Of a DNA stretch of 64,000 bases, positions 5,879-63,735 are shown piece after piece; positions within the stretch are counted from its first letter, which is position 1, and every line of letters begins with the position of its first letter. The position numbers and the translations under genes are program-made. Source of the DNA: Acutalibacteraceae bacterium (lineage in GTDB: Bacteria; Bacillota; Clostridia; Oscillospirales; Acutalibacteraceae); contig JAZNJD010000053.1 in assembly GCA_045577835.1 (NCBI GenBank), positions 1,252 through 65,251 of the forward strand, in the 5' to 3' direction. Under the pieces are notes generated by a model, which saw only the letters and a list, made by a program, of their open reading frames with translations, did no database searches and was not told the origin of the DNA.

Positions 5879-7785
5879 TGTATTCTGCCAAACTGCCTTT
5901 CAAGCTCTTTTTTCTTTATCTCAAAGGCAACAGGTCTACCGTGAGGACAGTACATAACCTTATCGTCAGACAATGTATCGTGTGCTAGCTTTAGCTGTTC
6001 TTCTTTAGAGGTTATGTATCCTGCCTTTATAGCCGCCTTACAGGCTACAGAATGGTATATATCGTCTATTCTTTCAATGTTTACCTGTGAGCCGCTAGTC
6101 AAACTGCTTGCAGCCTCGGTAACGATAGAAGCGGCGTCCTCATTCCTAAGCATTGCAGGAATAGCCCTTACAATAACCGAACCGTTACCGAAATCCTCGA
6201 TTTCAAAGCCTAGCGCCTCTAGTTTTTCTATATTTTCAAGCAAAGCGGTAATTTCGGTGTCACCTAGGCGCACCGTTACAGGCTCTAGTAAAACCTGACT
6301 TTCGCTATGGCCTTGCTCTTTTAGTTTATTAAAAATAATACGCTCGTGGGCGGCGTGCTTATCGATAAGAAACACGCTGTTTTCACACTCGACGATTATA
6401 TAGGTTGAAAACGCCTCACCTATATATTTAATCTCAAGCTGAGGCTTTTCTTCTGCTACCTCTTTAGCCGCCTCCGGCTCCTTTACAGGCTCTGCTTTAG
6501 GTGTTGGCTCTTCGTATTCTATCATCACCGATTTATTATAGCTTATCTGCTCCTTATTTTCGGTGGTTTCTTGGATATACTTTTTAACCTCTTCACGCTC
6601 ATAAAGTGGACGCTTATCGTCCTCTAAAACAAACTTTTGTGGCTCGATAGCTTCAAAAATATTAACTTTCTTGTTTTCTGTTTTTTCTACTGCCTTTTCG
6701 GGTGCTTTTGGCACGCTTATGGGTTGCTGTGTATAGCTTTCTGCCGACATTTTACCGAAATCAGTAGGCTTTTTAAAAGCTATTTCAGGTCTTGTATCGC
6801 CCTTTTCGATAGCACTTTTTACAGCGTAATAAACGGCAGAGAAAACCTGTTTTTCGTCCGAGAAGCGCACCTCGGTTTTAGCGGGGTGAACATTAACATC
6901 AACCGCCTCTAAAGGCATATCAATCGACAGTACAAACGCGGGGAATTTGCCTACCATCGTGCTGTTTTTATATGCCTGTTCCACAGCGGCTATAACTGTA
7001 GCAGAACGAACCAGTCTGCCGTTTAAAAAGGTATACTGTGTAGCCCTTGACTGACGGCAAAGGAACGGCTTTGAAACAAAGCCCTCAACTAAGATATTAT
7101 CGGTTGTACCATTTACCTCTAAAAGTGAAGTGGCTATTTCTCTACCTAAAACACTGTAAATTGCAGTATAAAGCTTTCCGTCTCCTGAGGTGGAAAACTG
7201 TAGCTTTCCTTCCCTTATAAACTTAAACGCTATTTCAGGGTGGGAAAGGGCGGCACGCTCAACCACCGCCTGAACCGTTGTGCCCTCGGTGGCATCTTTT
7301 TTAAGGAACTTCATTCTCGCAGGGGTGTTATAAAAAATATCCCTTATGATGATTGTTGTACCCTGAGGACAGCCTGATTCTTCAAACAGCAGTTCGTTTG
7401 CGCCCTCAATTACATAGTGACTGCCAAGGGCCTCGTCCTTAGTTTTTGTAAACATTTCAATTCTTGATACACAGGCTGTAGCGGCAAGTGCCTCGCCTCT
7501 AAAGCCTAGGGTACCGATAGCGTTCAAATCGTCTGCCGATTTGATTTTGCTTGTAGCGTGGCGCAAAAAGGCTAGCGGCACATCGGAAGAATTTATACCG
7601 CAGCCATCGTCGGTTATTCTAATCATCGAAATTCCGCCACGGGAAATTTCAACCGTTATATGCTGAGCTTTAGCATCTATTGAATTTTCAATTAGCTCTT
7701 TTACAACCGAGGCAGGTCTTTCAACCACCTCGCCCGCAGCGATAAGCTCGGATATTTCCTTTGATAAAAGCTCTATTTTAGGCAT
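5875..7785 (-). CDS. mutL: DNA mismatch repair protein MutL
   Basis: GHKL ATPase N-terminus (IAAGEVVERPASVVKELIENSIDA, DDGCGI, GFRGEAL) and C-terminal dimerisation domain. Confidence 0.95.
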   Translation of the reverse strand: MPKIELLSKEISELIAAGEVVERPASVVKELIENSIDAKAQHITVEISRGGISMIRITDDGCGINSSDVPLAFLRHATSKIKSADDLNAIGTLGFRGEALAATACVSRIEMFTKTKDEALGSHYVIEGANELLFEESGCPQGTTIIIRDIFYNTPARMKFLKKDATEGTTVQAVVERAALSHPEIAFKFIREGKLQFSTSGDGKLYTAIYSVLGREIATSLLEVNGTTDNILVEGFVSKPFLCRQSRATQYTFLNGRLVRSATVIAAVEQAYKNSTMVGKFPAFVLSIDMPLEAVDVNVHPAKTEVRFSDEKQVFSAVYYAVKSAIEKGDTRPEIAFKKPTDFGKMSAESYTQQPISVPKAPEKAVEKTENKKVNIFEAIEPQKFVLEDDKRPLYEREEVKKYIQETTENKEQISYNKSVMIEYEEPTPKAEPVKEPEAAKEVAEEKPQLEIKYIGEAFSTYIIVECENSVFLIDKHAAHERIIFNKLKEQGHSESQVLLEPVTVRLGDTEITALLENIEKLEALGFEIEDFGNGSVIVRAIPAMLRNEDAASIVTEAASSLTSGSQVNIERIDDIYHSVACKAAIKAGYITSKEEQLKLAHDTLSDDKVMYCPHGRPVAFEIKKKELERQFGRIQ

Positions 7786-7817: not shown

Positions 7818-10427
7818 TTAAATAGATTTTGCTTTATTTGAAAGGTCAAAGAGTACCCCCATAGCCTCTATTGGTGTGAGTGTATTAACGTCTAGAGTTT
7901 TAAGTTCCTTTAACAAATCGGTAGCACCCTGAACCTCAAGCGGCAACTGTGCAGAGGGCTCGGATACTGTTTTATATGTAACAACACCCTCGTCGAGTGT
8001 TTTCTTGAGTATCTCTTTTGCGCGCTCTATTACAGTTTTAGGAATACCGCTAAGACTCGCCACCTCAATACCATAGCTTTCGTCCGCACCGCCGGGCACT
8101 ATTCTTCTAAGGAAGATAATATCGTCTCCACGTTTTTTAGCCGAAATATTATAGTTTTTAACACCTTTCAGCTCGTTTTCCATAGCGGTTAGCTCGTGAT
8201 AGTGGGTAGCAAAGAGGGATTTTGCACCTAGTTTTTTACGGTCGGCAACATATTCGAGTACTGCTCTTGCTATTGACATACCGTCGTATGTCGCGGTGCC
8301 TCTACCGATTTCGTCAAGGATAATTAGGCTATTTTTGGTTGCATTTTTAAGAATATCTGCAACCTCGCTCATCTCAACCATAAAGGTTGATTGACCTGAT
8401 GCCAAATCGTCCGACGCACCTACCCTTGTATACACAGCATCAACTATGCCGATTTCTGCCATCTGTGCCGGCACAAAGGAGCCCATTTGCGCCATTATTG
8501 TAATTAGAGCCGTCTGTCGCATATATGTAGATTTGCCTGCCATATTAGGACCTGTAATGATAGCGCAACGGTTATCGTTTGTATCAAGATAGGTATCATT
8601 AGTAACAAATGGGGTTTTAATTATTTGCTCAATAACAGGATGTCTTCCCCCTGTTATGTTTATAACACCGCTGTTCGTAACTAGCGGTCTTGTGTAATTA
8701 TTGTTTACTGCAACCTCGGACAGAGAGCACAGTGTATCAAGGCGTGCTATCGCATCGGCAGTAGCACGAAAACGCCCAGCCGCCTCAGCTACCTTTTTCT
8801 GAATCGACTCAAAAATCTCACGCTCAACCACAATAACACGGTCTTTTGCTGTGAGCACCCTTGTTTCAAGCTCTTTTAATTCCTCGGTTATGTAACGCTC
8901 GGCACCAACTAAGGTCTGCTTTCTTATATAATCCTCGGGCACCTTATCCTTAAAGGAATTGGTGACCTCGATATAGTAACCAAACACCCTGTTATAGCGA
9001 ACTCGAAGCGTTTTAATACCCGTTCTCTCACGCTCTCTGGTTTCAATTGAAGTAAGAAGTGAGGTGCCTGAATTCATAGCCTCTCGAAGTGAATCCACCT
9101 CGGCGCTATAACCCTTTTTTATTATTTTGCCCTCTTTTATCGTGTTGGGCGCTTCATCCGAAATCGCACTTTCAATAAGGTCTGCTATATCCTCTAGAGT
9201 ATCAATCTGATTAAATATTCCCTTTAGCATCTTGCAAGAAGCGTTTTTTAGAGCCTCTTTTACAAGGGGGAATTTTCTAGTAGTCTGCGCTATTGTTAAA
9301 AGCTCTTTAGGTAGCGCTGTACCGTATACCGTTTTTGTGATAATACGCTCTATATCCCTGATACCTGTCATAAATTCGATAGCTTCACAGCGCATAACGG
9401 TATCGGAGCATAGCTCTTCAATAGCATTTTGACGGAAATTTATCTCGTTTATTGAGGTTAGCGGTTGGGTTACCCAACTAGAGATTAGACGTCTTCCCAT
9501 TGCGGTTTTGGTCTTATCAAGAACACCTAAAAGCGAGCCTTTTTTAGAGCCTGTTCGCATAGTCTTCTTAAGCTCTAGATTTCGTGCAGCGGTCATATCA
9601 AGCCGCATAAACTGTGCAGGTGTATAGATATTAACCTTTTTAAGTGCTATCTCTTTACGCTTTCCGTTTTCAAAGAGATAATCTATTACCGCACCTAAAG
9701 CAATCTGCGAAGCACTGTCGGTTGCTACACCTAAATTTTCAGGGCTAATAACCTTAAATCCGTCACAAACGGTGGAATAGGTATAAGCCTTTTCAAATGC
9801 GGTGCTAGGTCTATTGGTAACCGTACCCTCAAATTTTTCCTTTAAAAAGGCAGAAAGAACAGGTCTTTCAAGGTTTTTTTCGGTAACAATTATCTCGGAC
9901 GGAGAAAATCTTACAATCTCATCAATTATTTTTATATCGGCATCGTTACCTGTAATTTCGGTAAGATGTGACTGACCTGTTGAAGCGTCAATAAAGCAGA
10001 CAGCGGCAGCGCTATCATTAAAGTAAACCGAGGCTAGAAAATTATTTTTAGACTCATCAAGCATATCGCCCTCAATAATTGTACCGGGGGTTATTATTCT
10101 CACGATTTCACGCTTAACTATGCCTTTAGCGGTTGCAGGGTCTTCGGTTTGCTCGCAAACGGCAACCTTATATCCCTTTTCTACCAAACGGGCAATATAT
10201 CCCTCGCAGCTATGATAGGGCACGCCGCACATTGGGGCACGCTCTTCAAGACCGCAATCTCTGCCTGTAAGTGTTAAATCTAACTCCTCAGAGGCAAGGC
10301 GGGCATCGTCAAAAAACATTTCATAGAAATCGCCAAGTCTAAAAAATATAATACTGTCCTTATTCTGCTCCTTGATTTCCATATACTGTGTCATCATAGG
10401 AGAAAGACCATCGGTTTTCTTTGCCAT
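7818..10427 (-). CDS. mutS: DNA mismatch repair protein MutS
   Basis: 869 aa. TPMMTQY...FYEMF N-terminus, GPNMAGKST Walker A and STFMVEM motif. Confidence 0.95.
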   Translation of the reverse strand: MAKKTDGLSPMMTQYMEIKEQNKDSIIFFRLGDFYEMFFDDARLASEELDLTLTGRDCGLEERAPMCGVPYHSCEGYIARLVEKGYKVAVCEQTEDPATAKGIVKREIVRIITPGTIIEGDMLDESKNNFLASVYFNDSAAAVCFIDASTGQSHLTEITGNDADIKIIDEIVRFSPSEIIVTEKNLERPVLSAFLKEKFEGTVTNRPSTAFEKAYTYSTVCDGFKVISPENLGVATDSASQIALGAVIDYLFENGKRKEIALKKVNIYTPAQFMRLDMTAARNLELKKTMRTGSKKGSLLGVLDKTKTAMGRRLISSWVTQPLTSINEINFRQNAIEELCSDTVMRCEAIEFMTGIRDIERIITKTVYGTALPKELLTIAQTTRKFPLVKEALKNASCKMLKGIFNQIDTLEDIADLIESAISDEAPNTIKEGKIIKKGYSAEVDSLREAMNSGTSLLTSIETRERERTGIKTLRVRYNRVFGYYIEVTNSFKDKVPEDYIRKQTLVGAERYITEELKELETRVLTAKDRVIVVEREIFESIQKKVAEAAGRFRATADAIARLDTLCSLSEVAVNNNYTRPLVTNSGVINITGGRHPVIEQIIKTPFVTNDTYLDTNDNRCAIITGPNMAGKSTYMRQTALITIMAQMGSFVPAQMAEIGIVDAVYTRVGASDDLASGQSTFMVEMSEVADILKNATKNSLIILDEIGRGTATYDGMSIARAVLEYVADRKKLGAKSLFATHYHELTAMENELKGVKNYNISAKKRGDDIIFLRRIVPGGADESYGIEVASLSGIPKTVIERAKEILKKTLDEGVVTYKTVSEPSAQLPLEVQGATDLLKELKTLDVNTLTPIEAMGVLFDLSNKAKSI

Positions 10428-10465
10428 CAGTTTACTTCCTTTAGTTTTTTAACTTAAAATGTCAA

Positions 10466-10873
10466 TTAGTGGCAACCGCCGCAGGTTGAGCATGAACCTG
10501 AACATCCTTGAACCTCAGGCTCTACTGTTTCGGGGTCTGCACCGTCAACACACTGACCGATAATGCTGTTTATATCATTAAGCATTGTATCTATCTTAAC
10601 CTTTGCAGTGTTAAACTCAACCATAGCCTTACTCTGCATAACCTCAGCATAGATATTGCGAAGCTGCTCATTGAGTTCCTTTGTCTTCTGTTCGTCCTGA
10701 TTTTCCTCACCCATTACACGCTCAAGGTTCATTCTAACAAGATTAAACTCGCTGATTTTTCCCTGAAGCTCGGTATCGTTATCAAGAGCGAGTTTAGCCT
10801 TTGCAAATGCTATATAGCCCTCGTCTGCCTGAATTTCTTTTCCTAAATTTCTTGCTGCACTTAAAATACTCAT
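10466..10873 (-). CDS. ylbF: YlbF/YmcA-family protein with Cys-rich C-terminal tail
   Basis: 135 aa helical protein in the usual miaB-ylbF-mutS position. Ends in CSGSCSTCGGCH. Confidence 0.65.
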   Translation of the reverse strand: MSILSAARNLGKEIQADEGYIAFAKAKLALDNDTELQGKISEFNLVRMNLERVMGEENQDEQKTKELNEQLRNIYAEVMQSKAMVEFNTAKVKIDTMLNDINSIIGQCVDGADPETVEPEVQGCSGSCSTCGGCH

Positions 10874-10891
10874 TTTTTATTCTCCTTAAAA

Positions 10892-12301
10892 TTAATCTTC
10901 TATCAAAACGCCTATAAGCGTATTTGTATAATCTGTTATTTTTGCATTTTTAAAGCTACCAAGTAGCGATTTATCTCCCTTTATTTCAACGCTAAGACCC
11001 CCTGAGGTTTTGCCGATAAGCATATCCTTTTCTTCTAAATATTCATCAATTAAAAGCTCAAAGGTTTTGCCTATTAGCGCCTTGTTGTTTTGGTGAGAAA
11101 TTTCGTCCTGAGTTTTAAGAAGCTCATCAAACCAAACGCCCTTTTCCTCGCGGCTTACGGGGTCTGGCATACTAGCGGCGGGGGTGCCGTTACGGGCTGA
11201 ATAGATAAAGGTGAAAAGCTGTGAAAATTTAACCTCAGAAATTAGCGACAAGGTCTGTTTAAAGTCCTCATAGGTCTCCCCCGGAAAGCCCACTATAATA
11301 TCGCTTGTAAAGGTTATATCGGGCATAAGCTCTCTTGCCTTTTTTATAAGGGTTAAATACTGCTCACGTGTGTATCGGCGGTTCATTTCATTAAGCACCC
11401 TGTCACTTCCCGATTGGAAAGGCAGATGCAGATGTCTTTCTACCTTTTCACAGTCCGCCATAGCTTTTAACAGCTCATCGGTACAGTCTTTTGGGTGTGA
11501 GGTCATAAAACGAATTCTGAAATTACCCGAAATATCATTTATTTTTCTAAGCAGCTTTGCAAAATTTATATCCTCTTTTAGCCCCTTGCCGTACGAATTT
11601 ACATTCTGGCCTAAAAGCATTATTTCCTTAAAGCCATTTTTTATAAGACACTCGGCTTCCTTTAAAATTTCAGCCGATGCTCGTGAACGCTCTCTACCTC
11701 TAACATAGGGTACTATACAGTAGCTACAAAAGTTATCGCAACCGTACATAACAGGTAAAAAACCCCTGATTTTGCTATCTCGCTCTACAGGAATATCCTC
11801 TACAATAGGCGTATTATCGAGTGTTCGCTCAAAAATTCTTTTAGAACCTGAAAGACGGTTATATATAAACTCAGGCAGACGGTGGCTTACCTGTGTGCCG
11901 AGAACTATATCGACATACGGGTAGCTTGTCCTAAAGCGTTCTGATACCTTTTCTTGTTGTGACATACAACCTGCCACGCAAAGCAGCATATTAGGACGCT
12001 CTTTTTTATACTTTTTTATCGAGCCTACATTACCGTAAACCCTATCCTCTGCATGTTCTCTTACAGCACAGGTATTAAAAAGCACGAAATCAGCAACCGA
12101 CGGGTCCTCTGTAAACTCATAACCCATCATAGCAAGCAGACCCTTTATTCTTTCGGAATCGCTTACATTTTGCTGACAGCCAAAGGTGATAATACACGCT
12201 TTAGGGCTATCGCCATAGGTGTTTTTTACAAGGATTTTTGCACGCTCGATATATTCTTTATGCCCTAATATTTGGGCGGTTTTGTTGGTAGGTAATGACA
12301 A
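10892..12301 (-). CDS. miaB: tRNA-i6A37 methylthiotransferase
   Basis: UPF0004 N-domain (TFGCQQN), radical-SAM CDNFCSYCIVP motif and C-terminal TRAM domain. TTG start preceded by GGGGAG. Confidence 0.9.
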   Translation of the reverse strand: MSLPTNKTAQILGHKEYIERAKILVKNTYGDSPKACIITFGCQQNVSDSERIKGLLAMMGYEFTEDPSVADFVLFNTCAVREHAEDRVYGNVGSIKKYKKERPNMLLCVAGCMSQQEKVSERFRTSYPYVDIVLGTQVSHRLPEFIYNRLSGSKRIFERTLDNTPIVEDIPVERDSKIRGFLPVMYGCDNFCSYCIVPYVRGRERSRASAEILKEAECLIKNGFKEIMLLGQNVNSYGKGLKEDINFAKLLRKINDISGNFRIRFMTSHPKDCTDELLKAMADCEKVERHLHLPFQSGSDRVLNEMNRRYTREQYLTLIKKARELMPDITFTSDIIVGFPGETYEDFKQTLSLISEVKFSQLFTFIYSARNGTPAASMPDPVSREEKGVWFDELLKTQDEISHQNNKALIGKTFELLIDEYLEEKDMLIGKTSGGLSVEIKGDKSLLGSFKNAKITDYTNTLIGVLIED

Positions 12302-37736: not shown

Positions 37737-37891
37737 AGTGATATTCTGTGCTGCCGCACAGAGTGATATTTTCACTCTGTGAAAGTGATATTACTCCCTC
37801 TGGTCGTAGTGATATTTTATTCGTCCTAAAAACTGTCCGAAGGACAATATCACGATGCGTAAGCATCATATAACTGCAAAGCAATATCACT
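37737..37891. repeat. Iteron-like array of the 9-mer AGTGATATT
   Basis: Exact AGTGATATT at 37737, 37762, 37784 and 37808 (spacing 22-25 bp). One exact inverted copy lies at 37883-37891 and an 8/9 inverted copy at 37846-37853. Confidence 0.8.
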
Positions 37892-37985
37892 CGCCGCAAG
37901 GCGAATAAAACTGCGAGACTTCCCTTAGAGAAGTCTCGCAATCCACACATCTTTAATTTTTTCTAAAACATAATTCGTCTTATTT

Positions 37986-38052
37986 GTAGGGGAGGGGTCT
38001 CCCCTCCCATTCAAGTTTTTTATATTTACGGGAGGCGAAACGCCTCCCCTAC
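37986..38052. repeat. Convergent pair of GTAG-type REP-like hairpins
   Basis: GTAG-GGGAGGGG-TCT-CCCCTCCC (37986-38008) and GGGAGGCG-AAA-CGCCTCCC-CTAC (38030-38052), separated by a 21-nt AT-rich spacer. Confidence 0.65.
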
Positions 38053-38064
38053 GCTGTGAATCTA

Positions 38065-38514
38065 TTATTTATTTTCGATTTGCAAATTCCCCAAATTTAT
38101 AATTTTTATATTTTTCTTAATTGCTTTCTCGACGAATTCATAAGTATTAGAAAATTTATTATCTAAATAACAAATCAAATAATCAGTATTTTGTAACATA
38201 TAGTCATTTCTTTTACATATTGCAAAGCGTGGTGGAGTTTTTGCAACACAGTCAGGAAAAATTGTTTTCACAGTATCATAATATGTAAATTCGTTTTCTC
38301 TATTCAAATATGCCAAAACCACATTTATTTTAATTATATATTTTTTCTCTAGCACACACAACACTTCATATACAAGCCTATCAAAAGCACCCTGTGTCCC
38401 TACATAAAATATATTAACATTTTCCTTAACAATTAAATTTTCAATTTCCAAAAGTAATTTTCCTTTAATACTTTTAGAACAATCCCTATGACCTAAAAAA
38501 GCACAAGCATACAT
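38065..38514 (-). CDS. SLOG/DUF1273-family protein (YpsA-like)
   Basis: 149 aa. The AFLGHRD N-terminus and YVGTQGAFD motif are typical of DUF1273 SLOG proteins. Locally AT-rich. Confidence 0.65.
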   Translation of the reverse strand: MYACAFLGHRDCSKSIKGKLLLEIENLIVKENVNIFYVGTQGAFDRLVYEVLCVLEKKYIIKINVVLAYLNRENEFTYYDTVKTIFPDCVAKTPPRFAICKRNDYMLQNTDYLICYLDNKFSNTYEFVEKAIKKNIKIINLGNLQIENK

Positions 38515-38653: not shown

Positions 38654-38896
38654 ATGCGTATTGGTGAGGCAGTAAAACAACGAATTATAGATTTGTGTGA
38701 CAAAGAAAATATTACTATAAATAAATTAGCAACTATTTCAGGAATTACCCAATCCACCATTAACAATATCACAGGCGGAAGAAATAATTCTGCAACCGTT
38801 TCGACAATTAAAAAGATTTGTGACGGTTTAGAAATTGGCATCAAGGATTTTTTCAATTCCCCGCTGTTTGATAATTTAGAACAAGAAATCAAGTAG
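38654..38896 (+). CDS. XRE-family HTH transcriptional regulator
   Basis: 80 aa. KLATISGITQSTINNI helix-turn-helix. Confidence 0.8.
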   Translation: MRIGEAVKQRIIDLCDKENITINKLATISGITQSTINNITGGRNNSATVSTIKKICDGLEIGIKDFFNSPLFDNLEQEIK

Positions 38897-38904
38897 GTAT
38901 TAAC

Positions 38905-39132
38905 ATGTTTAATAGAATAAGAGATTTACGGGAAGATAAAGATTTAAACCAAACCGAAGTTGCAAAAATTTTGGGAATGTCACAAACAGGATATTCAAAA
39001 TATGAAACAGGAGAAAACGATATTCCAACCGCAGTTTTAATAAAACTTGCCCGTTTTTATAACACAAGCATTGACTATCTCCTAGGTGAAACAGATTGTA
39101 AAGAATGTTATCCCAAAACAAAAAAATCTTGA
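38905..39132 (+). CDS. XRE-family HTH transcriptional regulator
   Basis: 75 aa. LREDKDLNQTEVAKILGMSQTGYSKYETG. Paralog of the ORF at 51237-51452. Confidence 0.85.
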   Translation: MFNRIRDLREDKDLNQTEVAKILGMSQTGYSKYETGENDIPTAVLIKLARFYNTSIDYLLGETDCKECYPKTKKS

Positions 39133-50632: not shown

Positions 50633-50667
50633 AAAAATCCTTGAGGTTAAACCTCAAGGATTTTTTA
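50633..50667. terminator. Bidirectional intrinsic terminator
   Basis: AAAAATCCTTGAGGT-TAA-ACCTCAAGGATTTTTT. Confidence 0.8.
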
Positions 50668-50685: not shown

Positions 50686-50853
50686 TTAATCTTCAAAATC
50701 TTTTAAAAGCTTTAGTTTCGCTTCTTCTAAAACTTCCCTTTCAATATCGGGATAAATACAATCTTCACACATACCGTAAATATTTATGGATATGTTTTGT
50801 ATGATACATTTATTTTCTAAATTATAAATACAAAAATAATTTTCACAGTTCAT
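50686..50853 (-). CDS. Small Cys-rich protein (55 aa)
   Basis: Own translation: MNCENYFCIYNLENKCIIQNISINIYGMCEDCIYPDIEREVLEEAKLKLLKDFED. RBS AGAGGT lies upstream. Below the ORF-track cutoff. Confidence 0.5.
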   Translation of the reverse strand: MNCENYFCIYNLENKCIIQNISINIYGMCEDCIYPDIEREVLEEAKLKLLKDFED

Positions 50854-50869
50854 AGCTTGATACCTCTAT

Positions 50870-51050
50870 AAAAAAGCACACCCCCGAAGAGATGTGCCGA
50901 AAAAGTGTTTCTCCTCAGTCGTTGCTACACGAATATTCTCCACATGGGGATAAGAGGAAAACACCTTTTACCAAGGTATTATTCCCCAATGTAGAGTATA
51001 TTCAATTCGTGTAGCACAACTATATTATCATAAAAAAATAGAAATTGCAA
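50870..51050 (-). promoter_or_regulatory. Promoter plus ~145-nt structured leader ending in an intrinsic terminator
   Basis: Minus strand TTGCAA (51045-51050)-N17-TGATAATAT (51022-51030). A 100-nt imperfect hairpin spans 50921-51020. Terminator GCACAUCUC-UUCG-GGGGUGUGC plus U6 lies at 50870-50897, 16 nt before the ATG. Confidence 0.6.
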
Positions 51051-51052
51051 GC

Positions 51053-51121
51053 AAAAATCCTTGGGGTTTGACCTCAAGGATTTTTTACTTTCTTATGCAA
51101 ACTATTTAATCTCCAAATCTT
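51053..51121. repeat. About 70-bp direct repeat of 50633-50702 (terminator plus 3' end of the small ORF)
   Basis: About 88% identity by eye (about 62/70), including the hairpin and the ...TATTTAATCT(T/C)CAAA segment. Confidence 0.7.
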
Positions 51122-51236: not shown

Positions 51237-51452
51237 ATGTACTATCCAAGACTTAAAGATTTAAGAGAAGATAAAGATTTGGTTCAAAAAGAAGTAGCCG
51301 CTATTTTAGGAATTGACCAACGAGTGTATAGCAATTACGAAACAGGAAAAAGAGAAATACCTACCCGTTTCGTTGTCACGCTTGCAAAATTTTACAACAC
51401 CTCAACCGATTATATACTCGGTTTGACAAACAACTTAAAACCATATAAATAA
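51237..51452 (+). CDS. XRE-family HTH transcriptional regulator
   Basis: 71 aa. LREDKDLVQKEVAAILGIDQRVYSNYETG. Stop lies 1 nt before the RAYT-like ORF. Confidence 0.85.
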   Translation: MYYPRLKDLREDKDLVQKEVAAILGIDQRVYSNYETGKREIPTRFVVTLAKFYNTSTDYILGLTNNLKPYK

Positions 51453-51453
51453 A

Positions 51454-51945
51454 ATGGATTTACCAAAACGAAAACCGACACGACTCAAAGATTTTGATTA
51501 CAGCCAAAGTGGATATTATTTCATAACGATATGTACCTACCAAAAACAAAAAATATTAGGTGATATCGTAGGGGAGGGGTTCCCCCTCCCGCAATTAACC
51601 CAACAAGGAAAAATTGTAGAGAAATATATTTTATCCGTTAATAAAAAATACCCTTGTGTTGCTGTGAACAAATTTGTAATAATGCCAAACCATATACATA
51701 TTATTCTTTGCGTTGGAAATAACGGGAGGGGAAACCCCTCCCCTACAATATCCAATGTAGTGGGATGGTTAAAATATAATGCAACAAAACAAATCAATTT
51801 AATTGATGGTAACACAGGCAATCAAATTTTCCAACGCTCATTCCACGACCACATAATTCGTGGCGAAAACGATTACCTTAAAATTTGGGAATACATCGAC
51901 ACAAATCCTCAAAAATGGGAAGAGGATTGTTTTTATATTGAATAG
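51454..51945 (+). CDS. IS200/IS605-like HUH Y1 transposase-fold protein (RAYT-like)
   Basis: 163 aa. HUH motif MPNHIHIIL, FQRSFHDHIIR, and C-terminal WEYIDTNPQKW with the candidate catalytic Tyr. Confidence 0.78.
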   Translation: MDLPKRKPTRLKDFDYSQSGYYFITICTYQKQKILGDIVGEGFPLPQLTQQGKIVEKYILSVNKKYPCVAVNKFVIMPNHIHIILCVGNNGRGNPSPTISNVVGWLKYNATKQINLIDGNTGNQIFQRSFHDHIIRGENDYLKIWEYIDTNPQKWEEDCFYIE

Positions 51946-51946
51946 C

Positions 51947-51988
51947 AAAAAGGCTGTCTCACTAAAAAACGTGAGACAGCCTTTTTTG
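51947..51988. terminator. Bidirectional intrinsic terminator
   Basis: AAAAAGGCTGTCTCAC-TAAAAAAC-GTGAGACAGCCTTTTTT. Confidence 0.85.
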
Positions 51989-63284: not shown

Positions 63285-63360
<76 letters not shown>

Positions 63361-63368
63361 TTTTAATT

Positions 63369-63444
63369 GGTCTCGTGGTGTAGTGGTTAACATGCCAGTC
63401 TGTCACACTGGAGATCGCGGGTTCAAGTCCCGTTGGAACCGCCA
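63369..63444 (+). tRNA. tRNA-Asp (GTC)
   Basis: Anticodon arm CCAGT CTGTCAC ACTGG, T-arm GCGGG TTCAAGT CCCGT, encoded CCA. The acceptor stem has one C:A mismatch and two G:U pairs. Confidence 0.82.
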
Positions 63445-63448
63445 TTTT

Positions 63449-63525
63449 GCGCTAGTAGTTCAATTGGATAGAATACTTGACTACGGATCAAGGGGTTGTG
63501 GGTTCGAATCCTGCCTAGCGCGCCA
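63449..63525 (+). tRNA. tRNA-Arg (ACG)
   Basis: Acceptor GCGCTAG/CTAGCGC, anticodon arm CTTGA CTACGGA TCAAG, T-loop TTCGAAT, encoded CCA. Confidence 0.9.
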
Positions 63526-63531
63526 TTTTAA

Positions 63532-63560
63532 TTGACATTCACTTTGAAAAGTGATATAAT
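63532..63560 (+). promoter_or_regulatory. Internal perfect-consensus promoter within the tRNA cluster
   Basis: TTGACA-N17-TATAAT with an extended -10 TG (AGTGATATAAT), 16 nt upstream of tRNA-Pro. Confidence 0.7.
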
Positions 63561-63575
63561 CTTAATGTTGAATTT

Positions 63576-63652
63576 CGGGACTTAGCTCAGCTTGGTAGAG
63601 CATCTGGTTTGGGACCAGAGGGTCACAGGTTCGAATCCTGCAGTCCCGACCA
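63576..63652 (+). tRNA. tRNA-Pro (TGG)
   Basis: CGGGACT/AGTCCCG acceptor, anticodon arm TCTGG TTTGGGA CCAGA, T-loop TTCGAAT, encoded CCA. Confidence 0.9.
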
Positions 63653-63661
63653 TTAAGAAAT

Positions 63662-63735
63662 GCGGGTGTAGTTCAACGGTAGAACTTCAGCCTTCCAAGC
63701 TGACTACGTGGGTTCGATTCCCATCACTCGCTCCA
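63662..63735 (+). tRNA. tRNA-Gly (TCC)
   Basis: GCGGGTG/CACTCGC acceptor, anticodon arm TCAGC CTTCCAA GCTGA, T-loop TTCGATT, encoded CCA. Confidence 0.9.

Follow-up and report, generated by a model that had tools for sequence, protein, structure and literature searches.

Two in-frame cognate REPs on opposite strands bracket the HUH codons of RAYT genes in gut and rumen Clostridia

In the E. coli TnpA_REP/REPtron system (Nunvar 2010; Ton-Hoang 2012; Messing 2012, PDB 4ER8), the REPs (repetitive extragenic palindromes), short imperfect hairpins preceded by a 5' GTAG, flank the gene of a RAYT enzyme with an HUH motif and a single catalytic Tyr. This monomeric enzyme binds single-stranded DNA (ssDNA) at the 5' GTAG and at the hairpin foot, and cleaves at CT dinucleotides, the GTAG being essential to both binding and cleavage (PMC3479197). 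In-frame REPs inside the tnpA_REP genes themselves were reported for subclass 2.4, which corresponds to RAYT Group 4, and some genes of subclass 2.8 also have intragenic REPs; the subclass 2.4 insertions are in frame, sit as a rule in the beta3/alphaC loop that separates HuH from Y, and are read as peripheral and tolerated (Quentin et al. 2018, BMC Genomics 19:475, PMC6006769). Here we describe a RAYT/TnpA_REP-like gene of the Y1 HUH type, located in a 64-kb stretch of DNA from a gut Clostridia bacterium (hereafter the window), which carries two translated GTAG-tagged hairpins, REP A before and REP B after its HUH codons (Table 1). We consider it probable (roughly 0.6) that a RAYT clade of gut and rumen Clostridia carries these two in-frame cognate REPs as retained ssDNA substrates of the encoded enzyme.

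In-frame cognate REPs in tnpA_REP genes are known, and the present locus is a new architectural variant of them in a Clostridia-specific clade. As far as can be seen, the pair split around HUH, the fixity of the two sites, the selection at the nucleotide level and the concerted evolution of REP A and REP B are new. The text and figure legends of PMC6006769, as far as they were covered, describe neither concerted evolution of this kind nor synonymous-site conservation nor the use of two frames. REPs inside RAYT genes go unmentioned in Di Nocera 2013 (PMC3733652), Bertels 2017 (PMC5581495), Ton-Hoang 2012 (PMC3333891) and Corneloup 2021 (PMC8266576), and our search of the literature after Quentin et al. 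2018 found no later paper on them.

The first-pass annotation of the window, made by a model from the letters and their translated reading frames, had called the gene a RAYT-like HUH transposase, and the alignment of 26 homologues and the fold both agreed. The M-P-N-H80-I-H82 segment, whose HUH codons occupy 51691-51699, was invariant in this alignment and lies on strand 80-87 of the AlphaFold model (pLDDT 77.7). Also invariant was the predicted catalytic residue Y147 (51892-51894), the single Tyr on the C-terminal helix 137-150 of the model, together with the Y---NP motif, here Y147-I-D-T-N151-P152, which PMC6006769 gives as the signature of class 2 (TnpA_REP). The best solved relative found with the profile of the 26 homologues was E. 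coli TnpA_REP (PDB 4er8_A, E=5e-7), which was also the top Foldseek match of the model (TM 0.55), followed by the IS608 and ISDra2 transposases, and all of the top 30 matches were Y1 transposases. The two proteins are 23% identical. The profile alignment placed Q127, D132, H133 and R136 on E. coli Q95, E100, H101 and R104, and four of the six GTAG-contact positions (E. coli residues as named in PMC6006769) are kept or conservatively replaced, W94 and W99 being exchanged for F and H. The protein has, in short, the RAYT fold and catalytic motifs; it ends 16 residues past Y147, with no C-terminal extension, and is unlike the E. coli enzyme in having no inhibitory C-terminal tail. The match to Pfam Y1_Tnp (PF01797) was weak (E=6e-5, 23.5 bits vs a cut-off of 23) and that to NCBIfam NF047646 REP_Tyr_transpos reached 68.1 bits, under the cut-off of 80; the window protein is a relative and not an equivalog of this curated family. 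A single RAYT copy is present in the window, and the wider family comprises 21,259 cluster representatives at E<=1e-3, 199 of them at E<=1e-30.

Both hairpins have an 8-bp stem and a 3-nt loop. On the minus strand REP B reads GTAG-GGGAGGGG-TTT-CCCCTCCC, and REP A is identical to the reverse complement of REP B at 23 of 24 nt; the two are one oriented GTAG-tagged element on opposite strands. Folding as ssDNA gave -9.1 kcal/mol for each, with z scores of -2.8 (REP A) and -3.5 (REP B). The HUH codons fall within the coding spacer of 133 nt that separates them, REP A standing 34 codons before HUH. This pair of in-frame REP-type hairpins around the HUH motif had been proposed in the first-pass annotation, and its positions, sequences and peptides proved correct; its parse of the REP A loop as TT-CCCCCTCCC did not, the actual loop being of 3 nt (TTC). 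Within the window, the exact 8-mer GGGAGGGG occurs six times, always as an arm of one of three hairpins (REP A, REP B and 37990-38008). Copies with one mismatch were not enriched (17 observed vs 18 expected); only the exact 8-mers, all of them in hairpins, are informative. G+C-rich GTAG-tagged hairpins number four in the window, namely REP A, REP B and an intergenic pair, and Rfam at gathering threshold placed no family over the hairpins. The GTAG and the short imperfect hairpin are shared with E. coli; unlike there, the REPs are internal to the gene and their stems are shorter (8-10 bp).

We then considered the relatives of the gene, collected by a scan with one genome per species. The best 80 of at least 587 confirmed relatives were used, all from metagenome-assembled genomes (MAGs) of Clostridia (Acutalibacteraceae, Oscillospiraceae and others) and with 45-71% amino acid identity to the window protein, which makes 81 loci with the window. 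A GTAG-hairpin before HUH together with a hairpin-CTAC after HUH was found in 66 of the 81 genes. The stems differ between lineages, with at least 15 sequences, among them GGGAGGGG, GGGACGGG, GGGAGGAT, GGGACGGCG, GGGCGCGC, GGCAGGGGC, GGGCGATTC and GGAACGGTC, and the recurrence of the two-hairpin layout with different stems excludes chance. Within each gene REP A is the reverse complement of REP B, and in 14 genes the match is complete, with agreement at every one of the 23-26 nt, those of the loop and of the single stem mismatch among them. A protein-level proxy applied to the Clostridial clade gave REP A before and REP B after HUH in 172 of 269 proteins, and the REP-encoded peptides are among the best-conserved segments of the protein in close relatives. 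The hairpins are conserved features at fixed, clade-wide positions and not recent lineage-specific inserts.

An extended, REPIN-like complementarity of the intragenic pair was also considered, as a repeat search in the window had returned 53-nt arms of 77%, and it was rejected: over 66 loci, the 24 nt inside the cores gave 0.40 vs 0.38 in cross-locus controls, and the 8 nt outside gave 0.33 vs 0.33. Beyond the REP cores, what these loci share is limited to the first base on the inner side and the last 1-2 on the outer side. The extended flanks are not complementary and the intragenic pair is thus two REPs, not one long REPIN hairpin. In this absence of complementarity beyond 1-2 nt, and in its 133-nt coding spacer, it differs from the REPINs of Bertels and Rainey (2011).

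The use of frames and codons indicates which molecule is under selection. The GTAG of REP A stands in frame 0 (GTA GGG, Val-Gly) in 69 of the 70 genes that have REP A. For the CTAC of REP B, frame 1 (..CCT ACN, Pro-Thr) was found in 56 genes, frame 0 (CTA CAA, Leu-Gln, giving 'PPLQ') in 16 and frame 2 in 2; REP B is read in different frames across subclades, which means the same DNA element with a different translation. The G+C content is 0.67 in the hairpins vs 0.35 in the rest of the genes, and of the Gly codons, 143 of 238 within the hairpins but 77 of 504 elsewhere are GGG. For genes of different species sharing a stem type, we took the fraction of positions with the same codon given the same amino acid. 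In five of six subgroups it was 0.77-1.0 for the hairpins vs 0.45-0.60 for the remainder of the gene; the sixth, that with GGGCGCGC stems, gave 0.67 for REP A and 0.81 for REP B. In one group of six species, the nucleotide identity is 100% for REP A and 66% for the rest of the gene. The stem mismatches G.A and G.T of REP A appear as T.C and A.C on the sense strand of REP B, and these mirrored mismatches show that REP B carries the oriented element of REP A on the opposite DNA strand, an arrangement that suits a protein reading ssDNA and not an mRNA structure. Likewise, VGEGFPLP pairs with GRG and VGDGFPVP with GTG; E/L vs D/V correspond to GAG/CTC vs GAC/GTC stem pairs, and the peptides covary because of base pairing in the DNA stem. 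These comparisons of sequences indicate a selection that acts on DNA, not on peptide or mRNA, and that is purifying at the nucleotide level.

Cognate REPs also exist outside the genes. In the window they form one inverted doublet whose GTAG ends point outward around a spacer of 21 nt, the architecture that had been noted at first reading, with the right half 13 nt downstream of where the minus-strand ORF 38065..38514 has its stop codon. Inverted pairs of this kind outside genes are shared with the E. coli REPtron (BIME/REPIN-like) and, with their outward GTAG, with REPINs, to which the metagenome counterparts described below can equally be compared. When the GTAG+8 12-mers of each gene were searched in about 1.16 Mb of flanks, 31 occurrences were found. 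Own 12-mers occurred at 0.40 per locus in their own flanks vs 0.013 per non-cognate pair, a 30-fold enrichment, the control pairing the seeds of one locus with the flanks of another whose seeds differ. The window REP (GTAGGGGAGGSGNNNCSCCTCCC), scanned in metagenome contigs, gave at least 120 contigs, and among the 147 matches listed 140 were outside any RAYT-like ORF. Many of the listed matches are doublets of GTAGGGGAGGGG-TYT-CCCCTCCCG, a spacer of about 26 nt and CGGGAGGCG-AAA-CGCCTCCCCTAC, which is the design of the window doublet including its GGGG/GGCG asymmetry. A genuine extragenic REP family with the same sequence therefore exists. In the sequences compared, the hairpins change between lineages, but always in concert, within the gene and with the extragenic REPs of the same genome; at the homologous sites we found palindromic, lineage-specific sequence that covaries with the flank REPs, where a hairpin unique to these sites or a conserved non-palindromic sequence would have spoken against the initial proposal.

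In two metagenome contigs, 'double-foot' REPs with GTAG-hairpin-CTAC in one unit were seen at 1360-1386 (L102) and 1320-1346 (L144); L-numbers designate homologous or metagenome loci. Such units are the expected product of a deletion between two inverted REPs, and double-foot REPs are also noted in PMC6006769.

Full near-identical copies of a RAYT gene were not found among the loci, and the extra copies are confined to two cases. In L006, a truncated and frameshifted second copy at 6283-6574 shares about 98% identity with the intact gene (9592-10071) between the start codon and REP B's CTAC, where the similarity breaks off abruptly; this break hints at REP ends as sites of DNA breakage and joining. 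In L034, the 5' two-thirds of the RAYT are present as a tandem partial triplication (9402-10519, period 358 bp) in which every copy holds the A...B pair and the junctions are found 22 nt past B instead of coinciding with the end of the REP. This may be a genuine rearrangement or an artefact of MAG assembly. On one further contig (SVLU01000006.1), two RAYTs of this clade about 25 kb apart (L033 and L046) have different REP types, GGCAGGGGC vs GGAAGGCAG, as expected if every RAYT has a private REP family.

In the AlphaFold model, the REP A peptide (residues 39-46) is the tip of a beta-hairpin that lies between beta1 and the first long helix, and the REP B peptide (residues 91-98) makes up the loop joining the HUH strand 80-87 to helix 99-118, pLDDT being <50 at residues 93-95. 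Both peptides are thus predicted to lie in surface loops, and the length of the protein loop follows that of the DNA hairpin across homologues. The initial suggestion of REP insertion tolerated in surface loops is borne out by the model as to the loops, with the qualification that the sites are fixed throughout the clade. In L027 (2080-2664), the GGGAGGGG/CCCCTCCC stems are kept, both hairpin loops are 36-39 nt larger, with internal complementarity of their own, and both protein loops are longer. L060 and L080 are without REP A and have a GTAG-REP at a third site.

Compared with subclass 2.4, the window gene is likewise a class-2 Y1 HUH gene with Y---NP and no C-terminal extension, with translated GTAG-REPs and cognate REPs outside the gene too, and its REP B also sits in the beta3/alphaC loop between HUH and Y. 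It differs in that both REPs of subclass 2.4, often in several tandem copies, lie in the single loop after HUH, whereas here they are split around HUH, and in that PMC6006769 treats the subclass 2.4 insertions as variable and peripheral. Relatives resembling subclass 2.4 were gathered with a bait sequence, only real matches being used; by the protein proxy, V-G...P before HUH was present in 0 of 120 and V-G after HUH in 111 of 120. One of them, P0172 from Methylococcus (VGAGPRACP...GRPQGAAPT type), shares 36% identity with the window protein (E 5e-31). Its DNA reads GTAG-GGGGCAGGC...GCCTGCCC and then GGGGCGAC...GCCGCCCC-TAC, in frame and both after HUH, and P0121, P0136 and P0206 have tandem repeats of the P0172-type REP unit. 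P0172 has the architecture described for subclass 2.4, to which the window protein may be likened through P0172 and through its own architecture. In L201, the region 9528-11931 holds the P0172 gene within a type I restriction-modification cluster, flanked by a RhuM-like gene and hsdR; the start and stop of the P0172 gene overlap its neighbours.

In-frame translated palindromes, presumably tolerated in loops, are also known from unrelated genes as intragenic REPs and Rickettsia palindromic elements (Di Nocera et al. 2013, PMC3733652). Those are sporadic in host genes; here the host gene is that of the cognate enzyme and the sites are fixed clade-wide. IS200/IS605 elements differ in having sub-terminal flanking hairpins on the same strand and near-identical copies, whereas the hairpins described here are internal and inverted.

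We propose that the REPs entered by insertion into permissive loops, as described for subclass 2.4, and were retained as ssDNA substrates. The encoded enzyme would bind GTAG and hairpin foot like E. coli TnpA_REP, recognising its target on the coding strand at REP A and on the template strand at REP B. Its specificity would be coupled to the sequence of its substrate, the product would gain binding sites in its own gene, and the gene might be a resident, protected member of the REP population, exposing one recognisable REP whichever strand becomes single-stranded. Several points weigh against this proposal. Binding and cleavage are reasoned by homology with an enzyme of 23% identity, and the published homology model of subclass 2.4 (PMC6006769) has the insertion at a distance from the surface that binds DNA. 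Of the 81 genes, 15 have lost at least one recognisable hairpin, some of them both, the ORF and catalytic motifs being intact, so that hairpins can decay and are dispensable for folding and catalysis. The extragenic copies are few, with one doublet in the 64-kb window, and only 15 of 78 genes have one of their cognate REPs in the 500 bp on either side, which for most members leaves the internal REPs as the nearest ones. Finally, hairpin conservation across species could come from conservation of a REP master with continual homogenisation, with no benefit from the intragenic location. A bolder form of the proposal, which we hold tentatively and regard as rather doubtful, is a functional self-recognition module: the RAYT might bind, and perhaps nick, its own gene on ssDNA (A on the coding, B on the template strand), with feedback on expression or integrity, the gene being a protected master copy that seeds and corrects the extragenic doublets. 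If true, specificity and substrate would be physically linked and forced to co-evolve, part of the substrate encoding loops of the enzyme.

Quentin et al. 2018 (PMC6006769) regard the REPs of subclass 2.4 as neutral passengers. Transferred to the present clade, this view would have the REPs tolerated in two permissive loops and kept palindromic by genome-wide REP homogenisation or turnover, of no use to gene or system. The loops of low or moderate pLDDT agree with it, as do their variable lengths and sequences, the expansions tolerated by L027 on both sides, the third position used in L060 and L080, and the 15 genes that lost hairpins with the ORF intact. It accords poorly with the fixed position, with frame 0 of REP A in all but one gene and with the retention in 66 of 81 genes at 45-71% amino acid identity. 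The 24-nt hairpins are identical in six species whose genes are otherwise 66% identical in nucleotides, and within-genome homogenisation is insufficient to explain conservation between species without a strong constraint on the element. We regard the passenger explanation as a serious possibility, albeit a minority one. Palindromy could instead be incidental, VGEGFPLP and GRGNPSPT being kept for protein function, and these peptides are indeed among the most conserved segments in close homologues. But they are wholly different between subclades in which palindromy persists, synonymous sites are frozen, REP B is read in two frames, and the exchange of E/L for D/V follows base pairs; hairpin anatomy, frame use and synonymous sites across the family effectively refute this reading.

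Two explanations would give the hairpins another function. A DNA switch or suicide cassette, in which the RAYT excises or inverts the 133-bp HUH segment and so limits a potentially genotoxic nuclease, would account for a pair that brackets exactly the catalytic HUH strand, for the existence of double-foot REPs in L102 and L144 (and in PMC6006769) and for the end of the truncated L006 copy at the CTAC of REP B. Deleted or inverted RAYT alleles were, however, not seen in the 81 loci or in the at least 120 metagenome contigs listed, a location of the double-foot REPs within RAYT remnants would be conjectural, and the monomeric E. coli TnpA_REP offers no obvious means to coordinate two ends (PMC3479197). 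We judge the switch improbable. A still less probable explanation is regulation at the mRNA level, with hairpins acting in the transcript by ribosome pausing, RNase protection or attenuation. The stems are stable, and E. coli REPs act as RNA elements in 3' untranslated regions. Yet the G.T and G.A of REP A become A.C and T.C on the sense strand of REP B, which is optimised as an antisense-strand hairpin, the GTAG tag is kept on opposite strands, and the elements covary with extragenic DNA repeats. The RNA-level role entertained in the first-pass annotation is disfavoured by this mirror arrangement of REP B and REP A on opposite DNA strands.

This clade bears on the role of RAYTs for the host and on the mode of REP copying. 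Two fixed sites within the coding sequence of its enzyme hold that enzyme's predicted substrate, apparently kept by selection on DNA and covarying with the genomic REPs. As a compact natural system, it would let the REP specificity of each RAYT be read from the gene and would serve for nuclease-target co-evolution and for the action of a RAYT on its own gene. In annotation, the peptides VG-x-G...P and G-x-G...SPT or PPLQ of such 'transposases' can be taken as translated REPs and not as protein motifs. The sequence evidence that selection at the DNA level dominates two short coding segments is unusually clear, and even if the REPs are passengers, the clade would be a clean case of nucleotide-level constraint overriding codon choice in a gene.

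Table 1 Features of the window (position 1 is its first letter).
Feature	Position	Strand	Description
RAYT/TnpA_REP-like Y1 HUH gene	51454..51945	+	163 aa; ORF list, profile and fold matches
REP A	51568..51590	+	GTAG(51568-51571)-GGGAGGGG-TTC-CCCCTCCC; recognised orientation on coding strand; peptide V39-G-E-G-F-P-L-P46
REP B	51724..51746	-	+ strand GGGAGGGG-AAA-CCCCTCCC-CTAC; peptide G91-R-G-N-P-S-P-T98
Extragenic REP, left half of inverted doublet	37986..38008	+	GTAG-GGGAGGGG-TCT-CCCCTCCC
Extragenic REP, right half of doublet	38030..38052	-	hairpin 38030-38048, stem variant GGGAGGCG
XRE-family helix-turn-helix (HTH) gene	51237..51452	+	Pfam HTH_3 E=5e-13; ends 1 nt before RAYT ATG
Intrinsic-terminator-like hairpin	51947..51986	+	right after RAYT stop; common to convergent glycosidase gene

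The XRE gene had been linked to the RAYT from the outset, and the 1-nt gap between them is as described; as a conserved partner in a module it was rejected, a homologue standing directly upstream of the RAYT in only 4 of 81 loci (WIN, which is the window locus, L019, L032 and L049). Further upstream, two near-identical bidirectional terminator-like palindromes of 33 nt (AAAAATCCTTGRGGTTTRACCTCAAGGATTTTT) at 50633-50665 and 51053-51085, about 420 bp apart, flank a small Cys-rich minus-strand ORF (50686..50853) just upstream of XRE-RAYT and may mark the boundary of a duplication or insertion. The intergenic DNA upstream of XRE also contains a perfect 12-nt inverted repeat, TGCTACACGAAT (50923-50934) and ATTCGTGTAGCA (51005-51016), around 70 nt, which could be a small structured element.

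Close to the intergenic REP doublet, at about 70 nt, a match to the Rfam Gut-1 RNA (RF01706) was found at 37842-37913 on the minus strand (55.7 bits vs a gathering threshold of 50), downstream of the minus-strand ORF 38065..38514. Beside and overlapping it, the motif AGTGATAT(T) and its complement ATATCAC are repeated several times, as seen by eye, in the non-coding DNA of 37740-37900. Two adjoining small HTH genes on the plus strand, 38654-38896 and 38905-39132, lie about 850 nt from the doublet, and the second has 57% identity to the XRE gene that precedes the RAYT. Five tRNA genes are clustered at 63285-63732 on the plus strand.

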